Part shown: positions 48,949 through 61,474 of the stretch, piece by piece
Layout of the letters: every line of letters starts with the position of its first letter
Position numbering within the stretch: position 1 is the stretch's first letter
From: a virus
DNA length: 64,000 bases
IMG/VR virus record: IMGVR_UViG_3300025597_000012
Strand: one strand, 5' to 3'
The notes under the pieces: model-generated
Database searches by the model: none
The model's input: only the letters and a program-made list of their open reading frames with translations
Told to the model about the DNA's origin: nothing
Position numbers and translations under genes: made by a program

Positions 48949-48952
48949 AAAT

Positions 48953-48977
48953 AAAAAACCCCGCTTTATAGGCGGGG
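48953..48977 (-). terminator. Intrinsic terminator (attenuator) immediately 5' of tRNA array 1
   Basis: Minus strand reads CCCCGC-CTATAAA-GCGGGG followed by TTTTTT. It ends 4 nt before tRNA-Pro. Confidence 0.7.
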
Positions 48978-49003
48978 CTTTAAGTATAATAATTGAGTTT
49001 CAA

Positions 49004-49972: not shown

Positions 49973-50056
49973 CGGTAGAGACAGGAATCGAACCTGTACG
50001 GCTATTACACCTTCATGGTTTTCAAGACCAATAAGCCCTCTCATTTGCGCTCTACC
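49973..50056 (-). tRNA. tRNA-Ser(UGA), class II
   Basis: Acceptor GGTAGAG/CTCTACC, anticodon loop CTTGAAA and long variable arm. The D-stem is weak. Confidence 0.6.
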
Positions 50057-52784: not shown

Positions 52785-53243
52785 CTAGTTTCGGCAAATA
52801 TGGTCTGCTGCTTTTGAAGCTATCATCTCGTCTGGTTTTACTAAAACATTATATCCTAGTGATTTAACCCAACCGGTAATAGCTGGAACAAGATTTGTTG
52901 ATTTTGTTATTTTTGCATTATTATAATCGAACTCAAGGGCTTCAAATTGGACTGGAACTTCTGCATTTATAGTTTGAGCTGTATCTATTGTTATTTCAGC
53001 TTCCTTCCATAAACGGCTAAAAGTATCCCTTATCCTAGGGATTCTTTGCTTTCTATATACAAAGTGTGCTCCCCTAAGTCCATATCTGAACACAACCGCC
53101 GTAGCGTAAACTGTATTCGACCCGTAATTCTGTGAGTCAGTAGCTATGTAAATCTTTAGGTTTGGATTCTGCTGTATTTGTTCTACAACGTGTTCCACTA
53201 TGTTTACTAACTTTCCTTCCTCTGTCCGAAAGTATTTGTCCAT
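52785..53243 (-). CDS. YkuK/DUF458-like RNase-H-fold protein
   Basis: The pattern LKIYIATDSQNYGSNTVYATAVVFRYGLRGAHFVYRKQRIPRIRDTFSRLWKEAEITI matches, from memory, the ..GTDSQ....tiv.H..g.Ga.f.Y.k signature of this family. Confidence 0.5.
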   Translation of the reverse strand: MDKYFRTEEGKLVNIVEHVVEQIQQNPNLKIYIATDSQNYGSNTVYATAVVFRYGLRGAHFVYRKQRIPRIRDTFSRLWKEAEITIDTAQTINAEVPVQFEALEFDYNNAKITKSTNLVPAITGWVKSLGYNVLVKPDEMIASKAADHICRN

Positions 53244-53654: not shown

Positions 53655-53801
53655 AAGTAAAGAGAGTGGGATTAGATTTCCGGGGATTGACCCAACCTGT
53701 GTCCTAATCTTATTTATCCTTGTACGGAGGCACACTCTCTTTGAATGGTCGGGCGGATTGCTTCTTTCAGCCTCAGACATTAATTACAATGTTGCCCGAT
53801 G
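53655..53801 (-). other. Structured 147-nt spacer inside the tRNA array (tRNA-like stems but no canonical cloverleaf)
   Basis: Acceptor-like pairs TCGGGC/GCCCGA and GAGAGTG/CACTCTC. Internal hairpins ACATT-GTAATTA-AATGT and GATTAG...CTAATC. No TTCGA T-loop. Confidence 0.3.
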
Positions 53802-53874
53802 CGGTCTATCACGGATTCGAACCGAGACTACCGCATAGACAGTGCGGCGTGTTCAACCATTACACTAATAGACC
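53802..53874 (-). tRNA. tRNA-Asp(GUC)
   Basis: Perfect acceptor GGTCTAT/ATAGACC and anticodon loop CTGTCTA. Confidence 0.8.
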
Positions 53875-55460: not shown

Positions 55461-55531
55461 AGCGAGTAGTGGGAGTCAAACCCACGCCTTAACCTTGGAA
55501 GGGTCATATGCTATCGTAACACTTCACTCGC
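55461..55531 (-). tRNA. tRNA-Gly(UCC)
   Basis: Anticodon loop CTTCCAA and T-arm GTGGG-TTTGACT-CCCAC. The 5' 21 nt overlap the HNH ORF's 3' end. Confidence 0.7.
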
Positions 55532-56590: not shown

Positions 56591-56665
56591 TACATCTGGA
56601 ATGAGTCGAACATTCGGTCTCCGTCTTGTAAGGGCGGTGCTTTCAACCAACTAAGCTACAGATGC
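56591..56665 (-). tRNA. tRNA-Val(UAC)
   Basis: Anticodon loop CTTACAA and T-arm GAATG-TTCGACT-CATTC. One C.A mismatch in the anticodon stem. Confidence 0.7.
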
Positions 56666-56720
56666 AAATATAATACTTTATTTAAAGCTTACCAAATAAA
56701 GTATGTTAAAGTTTTGTTAG

Positions 56721-56868: not shown

Positions 56869-56872
56869 AAAT

Positions 56873-56897
56873 AAAAAACCCTCCTTTAAGGGGAGGG
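56873..56897 (-). terminator. Intrinsic terminator (attenuator) immediately 5' of tRNA-Lys
   Basis: Minus strand reads CCCTCC-CCTTAAA-GGAGGG followed by TTTTTT. It ends 4 nt before tRNA-Lys. Confidence 0.7.
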
Positions 56898-56920
56898 CTT
56901 CAGTAATATTCGTGGTTAAA

Positions 56921-57080: not shown

Positions 57081-57281
57081 TTAAATCTTTTGTGAATATC
57101 TTTTCCAGCCTGTAACTTTATTGATAGCGTCTACTAGTTTATTGTAATCTTTACGCCAGTTTTTATAAGCTTTGGAGCGTTTATCTGATGGCTCCTTAGC
57201 GGCCTGTTCAGCTAAAAGTTCATCAGCATGACCTACGTTTACAATAATTATTTCTTTATCGTCAATCATTACTCTTTCCAT
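57081..57281 (-). CDS. Hypothetical protein (66 aa)
   Basis: ORF coupled to its upstream neighbour. Confidence 0.35.
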   Translation of the reverse strand: MERVMIDDKEIIIVNVGHADELLAEQAAKEPSDKRSKAYKNWRKDYNKLVDAINKVTGWKRYSQKI

Positions 57282-57607
57282 TACTTTATTCTTTTAATAA
57301 GTTCACCACTAAGCTCCTCATAAATTCTTGAGAATTTTTCATAACCCATTCTTATTAAGAACATTCCGTAGTTTAAAAATATCTTTACGTGCTCATCATC
57401 TTCTTTACCATAAGCTACAATATCATTTAAATTGACTACTAATGGTTTATATGTAGTTTCTGAATCATCTTCATCTTCTTCATCTTCTTCATATTTATCA
57501 CCTTTAATCAGACGTTTAGCTATTCTTGCAGCTTTGTCTTCTTCTGATTCATTGTTCTTGTCTTTAAAGACTCTTACTTTTACAAAAAATTCTACGCGTT
57601 GTGCCAT
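57281..57607 (-). CDS. Hypothetical acidic protein (108 aa)
   Basis: ORF with an EDEEDEDD tract. Confidence 0.35.
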   Translation of the reverse strand: MAQRVEFFVKVRVFKDKNNESEEDKAARIAKRLIKGDKYEEDEEDEDDSETTYKPLVVNLNDIVAYGKEDDEHVKIFLNYGMFLIRMGYEKFSRIYEELSGELIKRIK

Positions 57608-57620
57608 GTTTTTTATTTTG

Positions 57621-57736
57621 CAGTATGGGAAGGATTCGAACCTTCATAGTTTAATGTATCGTTCACTAGGAATACTTAATACTTATAAACTGCCACCGAG
57701 ACTAGGTGGTGCGTCTGCCAGTTCCGCCACCGTACT
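57621..57736 (-). tRNA. Aberrant 116-nt tRNA-like gene (identity unassigned)
   Basis: Acceptor AGTACGG/CCATACT (one mismatch), a Leu-type D-arm GCGGAACTGGCAGACGC and a canonical T-arm GAAGG-TTCGAAT-CCTTC. The anticodon loop TAGTCTC has A at position 33, and about 46 nt are inserted in the variable region. Its own promoter ends 7 nt upstream. Confidence 0.4.
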
Positions 57737-57743
57737 ATAAGTA

Positions 57744-57774
57744 CAAAGATAGTGAAAAATTTTGAGATTACAAA
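57744..57774 (-). promoter_or_regulatory. Bacteroidota-type promoter of the tRNA-like gene
   Basis: Minus strand reads TTTG-N19-TATCTTTG. Confidence 0.6.
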
Positions 57775-59915: not shown

Positions 59916-61435
59916 TTTAATTTGTTAAAATAGGCCCCCGGTATTTAACATTTGAAAAAGATACCCCCGTACTTACCTAAAGGGGAAATAAGGGGAGGCT
60001 CTCACTCTTAGGAACCCGGTTATAACTCCTCCCCCGCGTTCCCTTAGTCCGTGACCTATCCCCCTGCTTAAAGCCGTAACGAATTGAGAACCAGCGACTT
60101 ACAACTATTTTCAAAGTTTTTGCCCTGAATAGTTGGAAACGGTCAGCAGGATGACCTACTTTTGTCTGGTAATCCTACCACACAGCCCAAAGGGGCAAAG
60201 CAAAGTAAGGCAAGCCGCAAGGCCATCCCTGAACTGTTCGTGGCGTGATTACCCTGCATATAAACTATAGGCAAACTTTGCCTACAGTCCAAAGTATGGA
60301 ATGTCGGAATAACTGATGTTTATTGGTGTCTATGTAGCATCCAACTCAGGTGTTAGTCTACATAGGATTAAACAGTAGGCCAGTTGACCAGTCGGGGTAT
60401 TTTTATACCTAACTGCAAACCATTGGTTAATCCAAAAAACCCGTCCTTTACGCGGGCTTGCTAAAAACAGGCTCTTAAATTGGACTCCCTAAGGGGATAT
60501 GCTTATACGATTGTGTCTGCTCATGCAGGTACATCGGTCAAGGGCAAAGTGTTACCGTCATCAGAATACAGGAACAAACCTGTATACGGTAGGGGTATAT
60601 CCCAACGCAGCCGGCTTGGTACGGACTTGGCAAGTCCAAACCATGACAATACTCGGTCAAACAACCCTGCTGTCCTAAATGGGCATCATATAGGCAGGGA
60701 CTGCGAAGCAACGTAGTGGACAACTCCCTGCTTAGGGTAGGGGTATATAGTGTCCGGTGCGTAGTGTAAAGGTGGCTATTGTTACCTGAAAGCGTAACGA
60801 AAGGAATAAACTGCAAAGTTTTTGAGGCTCGTCATGTACTAACGGGCTATTTTGCGTGTAGAATAATATTCAACCACGTTTCTGAATAGTACAAAGTAAG
60901 GTAAGCTACCTGCGAAAACGGTCTAAACGGGCTAATTGCACCCGCAAGGATTAGACTAAACTCACAATTATTTCTATAATTGAGTATAAAGCGGAAGCAC
61001 TCTTGTCATTTAGTGACAGGACTAATCTGCAAGTAAGGTATGAGGGTGGCCGCAAGGTTGCACCCTCATGTCGGGGTCAAATCCGGCGGAAGGCTCATAA
61101 CTTTCCGCCTTACCACATTTGGACACGGACGGATAACACAATAGGGGATGGGGCACGTCAAAGCACTACTAATGTAGGCGAGCACGGCACTCATTCCCTT
61201 GTTGTGTTAAAGTTGTGTTACATTTTACGTTATGTAAAGCCAGCAGTGTGCCGCGAGGTTCTTTTGCTGGCTCAATGTACTGAAAGAGAACCGTTTGCGG
61301 GTTGTTCCGTATGGGTCGGTATGTCCATATCTTTTGCTCGTAAATTGTTGATTTTCAATGTTTCAAAGGCTCTCATTAGTTATTACTGGGTCTTTATGGG
61401 GGGTGTGTCGGTACTGTCCTGCACACCCCTTTTCT
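59916..61435 (+). ncRNA. Candidate large structured RNA locus (one or several RNAs), identity unknown
   Basis: About 1.5 kb with no credible ORF and visibly higher GC. More than 20 local hairpins are present. Several are capped by GNRA loops only when read on the plus strand: gcc-GCAA-ggc at ~60212, cc-GCAA-gg at ~60943, GAGGGTG..cc-GCAA-gg..CACCCTC at ~61042-61067, and GCCAGCA..cc-GCGA-gg..TGCTGGC at ~61239-61271. The region ends in an intrinsic terminator. Confidence 0.35.
61398..61435 (+). terminator. Intrinsic terminator (plus strand)
   Basis: GGGGTGTG (61400-61407) pairs with CACACCCC (61422-61429), followed by TTTTCT. Confidence 0.65.
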
Positions 61436-61474
61436 ATTAGGATTATCGTGCCTCTTATGGCATAATGATACAAT

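Follow-up and report, generated by a model that had tools for sequence, protein, structure and literature searches.

The 64,000-nucleotide (nt) stretch of viral DNA analyzed here (IMG/VR record IMGVR_UViG_3300025597_000012; hereafter, the window) carries on its minus strand, from 57736 to 57621, a genuine transfer RNA (tRNA)-like gene of 116 nt that folds as a class-II-shaped cloverleaf in which the anticodon loop is abnormal and the variable arm very long. Sequence comparisons place this element in a small family that is seen in uncultured Bacteroidota-type phages and a few bacteria and was not found in the databases and papers searched. They also indicate that its conservation reflects selection and not decay, because G73 is shared, a GUCUC loop core recurs with covarying stems, and a diverged phage contains a folded copy. 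Our preferred reading, to which we assign a probability of roughly 40%, is that the product would be a trans-acting, probably aminoacylated mimic of tRNA-Asp, released from an mRNA by tRNA processing.

Architecture and detection of the element

Read from 5' to 3', the element has the layout AGUACGG UG GCGGAACUGGCAGACGC A CCACC UAGUCUC GGUGG, followed by 47 nt and by GAAGG UUCGAAU CCUUC CCAUACU G (Table 1). At minimum free energy, the 116 nt fold into a cloverleaf that bears a long fifth arm. An initial annotation of this DNA had described a 116-nt tRNA-like gene with A33, and the anticodon arm CCACC-UAGUCUC-GGUGG bears this out. The acceptor stem, which that annotation judged to be good, pairs at six of its seven positions and contains a single mismatch, C5.A68. 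The T-arm, also judged good, is canonical, but its 3' strand reads CCUUC and is not of the stated CCTTT type. The D-arm consists of a 3-base-pair (bp) stem and an 11-nt loop in which the Leu-type elbow nucleotides A14 and G18G19 are present. It matches the D-arm of the window's own tRNA-Leu(UAG) at 15 of 17 nt, and a scan of IMG/VR with its 21-nt pattern retrieved mostly ordinary tRNA-Leu genes, in agreement with its earlier description as Leu-type.

The region between the anticodon arm and the T-arm, previously taken as an insertion of about 46 nt, is indeed a long variable region; its exact length is 47 nt, which exceeds the range of natural tRNAs (up to roughly 24 nt). The extended hairpin AGTTTA...TAAACT reported there was recovered as an AGUUUA/UAAACU basal stem, and the tandem ATACTTA repeat was located on the plus strand at 57662-57675, corresponding to two copies of UAAGUAU inside the variable arm. 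The fold of this arm in the window copy has a free energy of -5.1 kcal/mol (z = -0.74).

A search with covariance models, which had been proposed as a check, supported the assignment. In a 201-nt slice, the Rfam tRNA model RF00005 aligned over model positions 1-71 to exactly 57621-57736(-) with 30.8 bits (E = 6e-5), above its gathering score of 29 bits, and its alignment assigns the 47 surplus nt to the variable region. In a 17-kb search, in which its filters operate, this model did not report the element, and Rfam families other than tRNA gave only noise at the locus. ARAGORN, which reports 21 tRNAs in the window, does not call the element. A generic scanner for long cloverleaves found it together with two artefacts spanning adjacent true tRNAs, at a chance rate of 0.03 matches per shuffled window. 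U33 is nearly universal in decoding tRNAs, and U33 together with a purine at position 37 is a general requirement for decoding; the element passes the gathering score of RF00005 but has A33 and U37. We also considered an intron-containing tRNA-Leu. This candidate was rejected, as the anticodon loop of a tRNA-Leu does not reappear when the insert is taken out, and a group I intron would be far longer.

A family of tRNA-like genes in phages and bacteria

The 255-amino-acid protein encoded upstream of the element occurs with identical sequence on 13 metagenome contigs, and in the six of these that cover the element in full the latter is 100% identical, without any variation. The contigs stem from JGI 3300010348, 3300025691, and 3300009716 and from ENA ERZ724020 and ERZ27257446. 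The closest homologue of this protein (43% identity) is encoded in a diverged phage, L009, which carries an element of 140 nt at the corresponding place. Its layout is AGCAGAG UG GCGGAAUUGGCAAACGC A CCCUA CUUUCUA UAGGG, 71 nt, and CCCAG UUCAAAU CUGGG CUCUGCU G; it scores 38.3 bits with the Rfam tRNA model, and its minimum-free-energy fold is a cloverleaf. Between the window and L009, the acceptor, anticodon, and T stems differ in sequence yet stay paired, and the D-arm is kept. The initial annotation had suggested a search of related phages for conservation of the insertion; the element is retained in this diverged relative, whereas the variable arms differ in length and sequence. In a separate comparison, blastn-short searches of the window and L009 variable arms against 64 kb and 21 kb, respectively, gave only chance-level matches, and an antisense or guide role of this arm was rejected. 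L009 additionally contains two ARAGORN tRNAs with Leu anticodons (UAA and CAA; L009:19487-19642) of 75-78 nt with short variable regions; in the same phage, a Leu-type class II body carries a Glu anticodon.

To collect further members, IMG/VR and the JGI metagenomes were scanned with patterns of the D-arm only or of the D-arm plus T-loop, and a final search applied the D-arm plus GTYTC to GTDB genomes and IMG/VR. Among the matches listed in the JGI scan, the JGI contigs of the window phage itself are missing, and all family counts are lower bounds. A regular expression that left the loop unconstrained and specified a Leu-type D-arm, any anticodon arm of 5 bp and 7 nt, a T-arm, acceptor pairing, and a discriminator G gave at least 21 distinct sequences, of which 20 were kept; a 74-nt tRNA-Gln-like gene with a 5-nt variable region (L049/L114) was set aside.

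The members fall into three types according to their anticodon. Among the Asp-type members, the loop is UAGUCUC in the window (variable arm of 47 nt), CGGUCUC in L275, L292, and L295 (24 nt), UUGUCUC in L301 (25 nt), and UGGUCUC in L303 (53 nt), and a fifth lineage beyond the 20 sequences, L306, has UUGUCUC and a variable arm of about 85 nt. The Asn type comprises 14 sequences with the loop YUGUUUC and variable arms of 20-55 nt, and the Glu type is represented by L009, with CUUUCUA and 71 nt. The five Asp-type lineages have, in the order given, A, G, U, G, and U at position 33. U8, the D-arm, G2-C71, U69, U35, U37, and G73 are invariant in the family, and G34 and C38 are found in every member except L009. 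The 1-72 pair is weak, either U-A or A-U. Every member has an acceptor stem of 7 bp and a T-stem of 5 bp (7/5), and the variable arms, across lengths of 20-71 nt, all fold as one unpaired nt, a stem, and two unpaired nt. The window copy has all the features of the family, namely, the Leu-type D-arm, G2-C71, U69, G73, a GUYUC loop, and a variable arm of the 1 + stem + 2 form. Asn-type members have U1-A72 and G73, encode CCA, and are called tRNA-Asn or tRNA-Asp by ARAGORN; in four of them (L018, L040, L052, and L088) a T-run follows CCA. These comparisons indicate that the variable arm has expanded independently in several lineages.

Covariation was evaluated on 17 distinct sequences from which the variable arm had been removed, as MAFFT misaligned the 3' halves when the arms were present. 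On these structure-guided cuts, which lean towards structure, 99.7% of 340 cells were paired, the single unpaired cell being C5.A68 of the window copy; 12 of 20 pairs had changed on both sides, and none of 500 shuffles reached any of five whole-structure measures. Several members had been chosen by pairing filters, but L009, chosen by synteny, and the D-arm-only matches had not. Four of the five pairs of the anticodon stem covary while the loop core stays. The loop is thus kept while its stem drifts, and something therefore appears to read positions 34-38.

These data bear on the view that the element is a decaying tRNA-Leu pseudogene with a junk insertion, which we regard as very improbable. 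Its Leu-type D-arm, A33, U37, the acceptor mismatch, the weak AU-rich variable arm with its 7-nt tandem duplication, and the missing ARAGORN call would all suit such a pseudogene. However, all four helices are kept by compensatory changes with respect to L009 and 15 other family sequences, the six aligned full-length copies are identical, and G73 and the GUCUC loop are common to independent lineages. We reject this view because neutral DNA would not stay folded at the divergence of L009. A degenerate Leu tRNA had been one of the initial suggestions; it is contradicted by G73 in place of A73, by the GUCUC core in four other independent Asp-type lineages, and by the folded copy in L009. Decay without conservation in relatives, which had been named as the outcome that would speak against a functional gene, is equally at odds with the near-complete pairing in the family and with the score of the syntenic L009 copy.

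Two members lie on bacterial contigs. L303, from a metagenome-assembled genome (MAG) of Bacteroidia, is flanked by genes for a protein with a type IX secretion system (T9SS) tail, a SPOR/beta-propeller protein, an ion channel, a rhomboid protease, and a Na/Pi transporter, and has its own promoter-like site and a strong terminator. L301, on a bacterial MAG contig, is flanked by genes for an ArsP permease and a DUF4349 protein. The neighborhood of L292 contains PIN-PhoH, a PD-(D/E)XK nuclease, and a lectin-like protein, but no tRNA-related enzyme. Transfer-messenger RNA (tmRNA) genes were seen beside several members, at a distance of 14 nt (L096:4101-4551) or of about 100 nt with an open reading frame (ORF) for a 32-amino-acid membrane peptide in between (L275, L292:7179-7736, and L295), and 2-3 kb away in L040, L052, and L088. 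The tags of these tmRNAs begin with ANNN beside Asn-type members and with ANDN beside Asp-type members. The window and L009 yielded no tmRNA.

The terminase and portal of the window phage match PHROG families. Judged by terminase, Leptolyngbya phage Lbo-JY46 (49%) is the nearest deposited phage, followed by the Cellulophaga phages phi4:1 and phi17:2 (31%) and then by crAss-like phages. Near and distant BLAST searches with the locus and two family members against 50,697 deposited phage genomes gave no match, and neither an exact anticodon-arm search nor a single-protein neighbor search in IMG/VR returned anything.

ARAGORN and Rfam together detect 23 tRNAs for 19 amino acids in the window. Two of these, a tRNA-Gly(UCC) (55461-55531) and an apparent tRNA-Ser(UGA) of class II (49974-50056), come from Rfam and are missed by ARAGORN. 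Neither program finds a tRNA-Trp, contrary to the initial statement that all 20 amino acids are covered without the element. A canonical tRNA of the same anticodon is located close by in most of the genomes that bear a member, as illustrated by tRNA-Asp(GUC) in the window, tRNA-Glu(UUC) in L009, and tRNA-Asn(GUU) in phages with Asn-type members. The canonical tRNA-Asp(GUC) genes of the window (53801-53874, minus strand) and of L009 (L009:17763-17838) have the loop CUGUCUA, with U37 and not a purine. Towards the end of the window (60000-64000), the GC content rises from approximately 33% to 44%, the sign of the GC skew flips, and genes switch to the plus strand; few ORFs occur between about 59.9 and 61.4 kb, and Rfam gave no match of note in 60000-64000.

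Identity elements and possible roles of the RNA

The identity set of bacterial aspartyl-tRNA synthetase (AspRS) consists of G73, G10, G34, U35, C36, and C38 (PMC9976931). All six are present in the window copy, and the set is also complete in all other Asp-type lineages. A73 is a crucial determinant of leucylation, and its replacement by G73 can switch Leu identity towards Ser (PMC9976931); the window copy and all members have G73 and thus lack the tRNA-Leu discriminator. Asn identity can be transplanted onto another tRNA body by the anticodon and G73, and the bacterial tRNA-Ser set comprises G73, C72, G2-C71, R4-Y69, C11-G24, a large variable region, and G30-C40 (PMC9976931). The Ser set is incomplete in the window copy (5/7), which has U72 and C30-G40 instead, whereas G30-C40 is found in 12 of the 17 aligned family sequences, which thus miss only C72. 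The conservation profile, as read from the alignment, fits the identity set of an aminoacyl-tRNA synthetase better than the requirements of the ribosome, and the RNA is probably charged by AspRS, or possibly by seryl-tRNA synthetase (SerRS), yet does not appear to be made for normal decoding.

In the mechanism that we favor, a Bacteroidota-type promoter would drive the RNA as the first part of an mRNA that spans ORFs of 108 and 66 amino acids. Host ribonuclease P (RNase P), and then a 3' endonuclease or trimming and CCA addition, would excise the RNA as they would the nearby true tRNAs that are interspersed with ORFs, and this excision would leave the next ORF with a short A-rich leader. The released RNA would act in trans as a mimic of tRNA-Asp and, given its full AspRS set, would probably be aspartylated. 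It would not be an ordinary elongator, because U33 is not maintained, a pyrimidine occupies position 37, and the same genome encodes a normal tRNA-Asp(GUC); more likely, it would engage a factor that reads Asp/Asn anticodon loops or would serve a special, non-standard use of a charged RNA. We favor a trans-acting product because a purely cis role leaves the conserved loop and discriminator unexplained and because L303 and L301 lie among cellular genes. A mimic or decoy and a regulatory RNA had also been among the initial suggestions, and any of these roles may apply.

Several observations weigh against the tRNA-Asp mimic. The loop CUUUCUA of the syntenic L009 copy, which is of the Glu type and has A38, fits neither an Asp mimic nor the GUYUC core, and in the window copy itself the acceptor contains a mismatch and the variable arm is thermodynamically weak. 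Homologues of the 255-amino-acid protein in L010-L014, L117-L119, L265-L267, and Leptolyngbya phage Lbo-JY46 are without an element at that position, and the element is therefore dispensable. Serylation, as in the allo-tRNAs described below, appears equally conceivable from the identity elements. In addition, the identity rules used were worked out in E. coli-type systems, from which the host may deviate, and the normal tRNA-Asp of both the window and L009 also has U37, which by itself would thus not rule out decoding.

The last point is in line with a genuine elongator of unusual body, either a spare tRNA-Asp that a class II body and an altered anticodon loop disguise from host tRNA-targeting nucleases or a SerRS-charged missense tRNA like the allo-tRNAs, a role that we consider somewhat unlikely. 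The 5-bp/7-nt geometry of the anticodon arm is strictly kept and the anticodon is constant within each type, G73 suits Asp, Asn, and Glu tRNAs alike, and the Asn-type members resemble real tRNA-Asn (U1-A72, G73, and CCA) and are called tRNA-Asn or tRNA-Asp by ARAGORN. Large insertions in the variable loop are compatible with translation (PMC5397188), phage tRNAs have been proposed to escape anticodon nucleases by loop mutations (PMC10264068), and allo-tRNAs that combine G73 with a long variable arm act as Ser-inserting tRNAs in E. coli, with GUC as a predominant anticodon (PMC5389517). Decoding is opposed by the variation at position 33 among the Asp-type lineages, given the near-universal U33, by the pyrimidine at position 37 throughout the family, and by the canonical isoacceptor of the same anticodon in most of the same genomes. 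Furthermore, the syntenic copies of the window and L009 differ in anticodon (GUC versus UUC), and C5.A68 disrupts the acceptor stem of the window copy.

Conservation of the loop would also be expected from an uncharged decoy that soaks up or blocks, during infection, a host factor reading Asp/Asn (GUN) loops or the class II shape, such as an anticodon nuclease (colicin-E5-like or other), a tRNase of the Schlafen type, or Tgt, the enzyme that inserts queuine. The G34-U35-Y36 core is kept while its neighbors are changed (R33 in several members, and U37), as would suit a binder that is to escape processing; the element stands at the front of a transcription unit; and tRNA-targeting defenses are widespread and countered by phage tRNAs (PMC10264068, PMC13056530). 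Nevertheless, a decoy of the anticodon loop would not need the invariant acceptor positions G73, G2-C71, and U69, the chromosomal copies L301 and L303 are hard to square with an anti-defense role, and neither defense nor anti-defense genes were seen near the element. Such a decoy is, in our judgment, unlikely.

Transcription context and neighboring genes

The promoter motif TTTG-N19-TATCTTTG, annotated initially as ending 7 nt upstream of the 5' end of the element, was confirmed (Table 1). Motifs of the TTTG-N19-TAtcTTTG type are what we take to be the Bacteroidota housekeeping promoter consensus. The window contains 13 copies of TTTG-N17-21-TANNTTTG, compared with 3.2 expected, and none of 100 shuffles reached 13; ten of the copies are on the minus strand at 48-60 kb, ahead of genes and tRNA groups. 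The sequence around the motif, AAATTTTGTAATCTCA..., is conserved upstream in L009, where an ORF of 60 amino acids lies between it and the element. One further match, at 56665-56696 on the minus strand, ends at the first base of tRNA-Val and would start transcription inside this tRNA; either this copy of the motif does not function or the boundary of the tRNA is misplaced.

The element had been thought to be individually transcribed. Yet the next ORF is only 13 nt away, and the minus strand contains no terminator from the element down to 56901. We infer from this spacing and from the lack of a terminator that the element is the 5' part of an mRNA that continues into the ORFs of 108 and 66 amino acids, and not a separate unit. 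The 108-amino-acid ORF has no PHROG match, and its homologues, searched with a single query and with a two-sequence profile, were limited to the window phage and L009. The element had also been singled out as the only tRNA-like gene not placed behind a leader, a contrast that loses its meaning as a hairpin "leader" occurs at only two places. This leader is probably the GC-rich hairpin with a T-run at 56869-56900, which is 81% identical to a copy at 48949-48980 (both in the minus-strand sense). Both copies are directly upstream of tRNA-Pro and tRNA-Lys clusters, and they have the look of terminators but the position of tRNA-array leaders.

Table 1. Coordinates of the element, its parts, and the features of its putative transcription unit in the window
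Feature	Position	Strand	Remarks
Promoter motif TTTG-N19-TAtcTTTG (TATCTTTG)	57744..57774	-	Ends 7 nt before the 5' end of the element
Whole tRNA-like gene	57621..57736	-	Rfam RF00005 match; copies in 6 other metagenome contigs identical
Acceptor stem, 5' strand AGUACGG	57730..57736	-	A1-U72, G2-C71; C5.A68 mismatch
Leu-type D-arm GCGGAACUGGCAGACGC	57711..57727	-	G10, C11-G24, G18G19; columns invariant across the family
Anticodon arm CCACC-UAGUCUC-GGUGG	57693..57709	-	5 bp, 7-nt loop
Anticodon loop U32 A33 G34 U35 C36 U37 C38	57698-57704	-	Read from the sequence
Variable arm, 47 nt	57646..57692	-	1 unpaired nt, AGUUUA/UAAACU stem with weak AU-rich extension, 2 unpaired nt
T-arm GAAGG-UUCGAAU-CCUUC	57629..57645	-	Identical to the T-arm of IMG/VR members L018 and L088
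Acceptor stem, 3' strand CCAUACU, and discriminator G73	57621..57628	-	CCA not encoded
A-rich 13-nt spacer CAAAAUAAAAAAC	57608..57620	-	From the element to the ATG of the next ORF
Acidic ORF, 108 amino acids, presumably co-transcribed	57281..57607	-	29% identical to the ORF downstream of the L009 element
ORF, 66 amino acids	57081..57281	-	Last gene of the putative transcription unit; called as a gene in all related contigs
First terminator-like hairpin and T-run downstream	56875..56901	-	Repeated at 48949-48980

In L009, the element starts right after the stop codon of the 60-amino-acid ORF, and the spacer CAAAAUAAUAAU then leads to AUG, with 12 nt between the element and the next ATG. L009 and L292 share the layout of stop codon, 0 nt, element, 12-19 nt, and next ATG. 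True tRNAs of the window are arranged in a similar manner: tRNA-Glu, tRNA-Ala, and tRNA-Asn precede ORFs of 262, 152, and 70 amino acids by 14, 11, and 0 nt, respectively, with A-rich spacers in the first two cases, and the gaps after such ORF-preceding tRNAs range from 0 to 14 nt, with A-rich spacers of 11-14 nt in three of four cases. The ORF directly after tRNA-Ala encodes a 152-amino-acid RNaseH_like protein (PF04308) that is found in tRNA islands of the window (52785-53243, minus strand), L009 (L009:18517-18972), L117 (L117:6873-7349), L167, L183, and L244; homologues in phages with the A73-type long tRNA-like genes described below are 41-43% identical.

The element may also be seen as a cis-acting relic, a former tRNA kept as punctuation for RNase P and 3' processing and as a leader for the downstream ORF, with a functionless released RNA. 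The short element-to-ATG gaps in the window (13 nt) and L009 (12 nt, there right after a stop codon), the same layout of the true tRNAs in front of the 262-, 152-, and 70-amino-acid ORFs, the tandem array L147 with its at least seven units of tRNA-like scaffold, A-rich spacer, and small ORF, and the precedent of plant mitochondrial t-elements (PMC1920247) are all consistent with this scenario. Against it, the geometry of the anticodon arm and the loop sequence are conserved in the family although the acceptor/T-arm and the elbow are all that RNase P and 3' processing need, L303 stands alone among cellular genes and has a terminator of its own, and Asn-type members encode CCA, followed in four of them by a T-run. 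We consider a pure relic to be decidedly unlikely.

As in t-elements, tRNA punctuation, and mascRNA, a tRNA shape in an mRNA abuts a coding region (13 nt to the ATG in the window, with no terminator in between), and cuts by RNase P and a 3' endonuclease would be expected to define mRNA ends. In contrast to them, the anticodon loop and discriminator of the family are conserved and stand-alone relatives exist, and a purely cis role is unlikely for these two reasons. By analogy with t-elements, the order of stop codon, element, spacer, and ATG suggests that excision by tRNA processing also shapes the neighboring mRNAs. For the tRNA-Asp mimic, we infer that this mRNA processing is the phage's way of making the trans-acting RNA.

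Relation to known tRNAs and significance

The closest known kind of RNA appears to be the allo-tRNAs (Mukai et al. 2017, PMC5389517), which are charged with serine, have a long variable arm and G73 or U73, and carry non-serine anticodons, predominantly GUC, GCG, and UAU. They were reported from Clostridia, Proteobacteria, and Acidobacteria; some of them are charged yet inactive in translation, and regulatory roles have been suggested (PMC5389517). The element likewise combines a long variable arm (47 nt), G73, and the non-serine anticodon GUC, and is located beside a canonical tRNA set. However, allo-tRNAs have an 8/4 or 9/3 configuration and a tRNA-Sec-like D-arm made of a long stem and a tetraloop, whereas the family is 7/5 with a Leu-type 3-bp D-stem and an 11-nt loop. 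It also has a fixed GUYUC core with U37, a U-A or A-U pair at 1-72, and variable arms that reach about 85 nt, and its sources are Bacteroidota-type phages and MAGs. An 8/4 fold of the element was rejected, as its acceptor stem cannot be extended by U8. We conclude from these comparisons that the family is distinct from the allo-tRNAs and not a member of them, because the 8/4 or 9/3 configuration and the Sec-like D-arm are absent. The nev-tRNAs are another kind of non-canonical tRNA with a long variable arm and a "wrong" anticodon.

With class II tRNA-Leu (RF00005), the element shares a nearly identical D-arm sequence, the T-arm, U8, G18G19, a long variable arm, and the cloverleaf, but it differs by G73 instead of A73, the Asp anticodon, A33, U37, A1-U72, and a variable arm of 47 nt as opposed to about 13-17 nt. 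It resembles bacterial tRNA-Asp in its full AspRS set, as its Asn-type relatives resemble tRNA-Asn in U1-A72, G73, and GUU; unlike bacterial tRNA-Asp and tRNA-Asn, it has a class II body, no U33, U37 in place of A37, and an A-U instead of a G-C pair at 1-72. A variable loop that takes large structured inserts is a property shared with engineered fusion tRNAs. In V-Spinach tRNA, variable-loop insertions of about 100 nt are tolerated in stable tRNAs active on the ribosome (PMC5397188), and a further report describes aptamer-tagged allo-tRNA variants as translationally active (PMC7590224). The variable arm of the family can expand because engineered tRNAs that bear large inserts in the variable loop remain stable, chargeable, and active in translation (PMC5397188), and it has done so repeatedly, from 20 to about 85 nt. 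The engineered fusions have a known cargo, whereas the natural inserts share no sequence and contain no recognizable aptamer or target complementarity. A survey of structured viral RNAs mentions unclassified tRNA-like motifs but none with the architecture of the family (PMC10690425).

Other tRNA-shaped genes were observed in the course of the scans. L147/L148 (JGI Ga0208974_1005435 / Ga0208975_1005464) are occupied over the whole 4.4-kb contig, on the minus strand, by at least seven tandem tRNA-Leu-like units. Their scaffold consists of the acceptor AGUCAGG/CCUGACU, A73, a Leu-type D-arm, and the T-arm ACAGGUUCGAAUCCUGU, while each unit has a different hairpin of 40-70 nt in place of the anticodon arm. 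After most units, an A-rich spacer leads to the ATG of a small ORF. The arrangement looks like a cassette array punctuated by tRNA-shaped elements. About 60 loci among L120-L264 and L268-L299, in metagenome and viral contigs, contain diverse tRNA-Leu-like genes of 90-146 nt (for example, L123, L125, L167, L183, L226, L230, L243, L250, L257, and L263). Their acceptor/D/T scaffold is conserved and A73 is present in most, but the middle is foreign and structured; some of these middles are conserved or covary between contigs, as in L226/L230 and L243/L257. E. coli leucyl-tRNA synthetase is reported to charge tRNA-Leu variants that lack the anticodon and variable arms, provided that A73 and an intact elbow are present (PMC9976931), and by analogy the long A73-type RNAs may be leucylatable RNAs without an anticodon. 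Finally, L296:386-479 (minus strand) is a 94-nt tRNA with a Leu-type D-arm, a 25-nt variable arm, A73, and the canonical loop UUGCGAA (GCG, Arg). It represents a further class II body with a non-Leu anticodon, and GCG is also predominant among allo-tRNAs.

With the allo-tRNAs and nev-tRNAs it was asked whether tRNA-shaped RNAs serve cells and viruses as tools of deliberate mistranslation, of regulation, or of conflict. The locus described here adds a separate, Leu-bodied lineage, found in phage tRNA islands, beside phage tmRNAs, and on bacterial chromosomes, and its conservation profile predicts an RNA that would be charged yet would be no normal decoder. Its longer members are missed by standard tRNA finders and by filtered Rfam scans, and phage tRNA repertoires are consequently under-counted. 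In a broader and, in our estimate, improbable version of events, the 7/5 class II family would be charged with Asp or Ser and put to a non-standard use tied to Asp/Asn codons or to ribosome rescue, the variable arm serving as an evolvable platform for lineage-specific RNA modules; several members adjoin phage tmRNA genes with tags that start A-N-N-N or A-N-D-N. If this were true, the gene in the window would be a working part of a phage-encoded system for manipulating translation and not an oddity.

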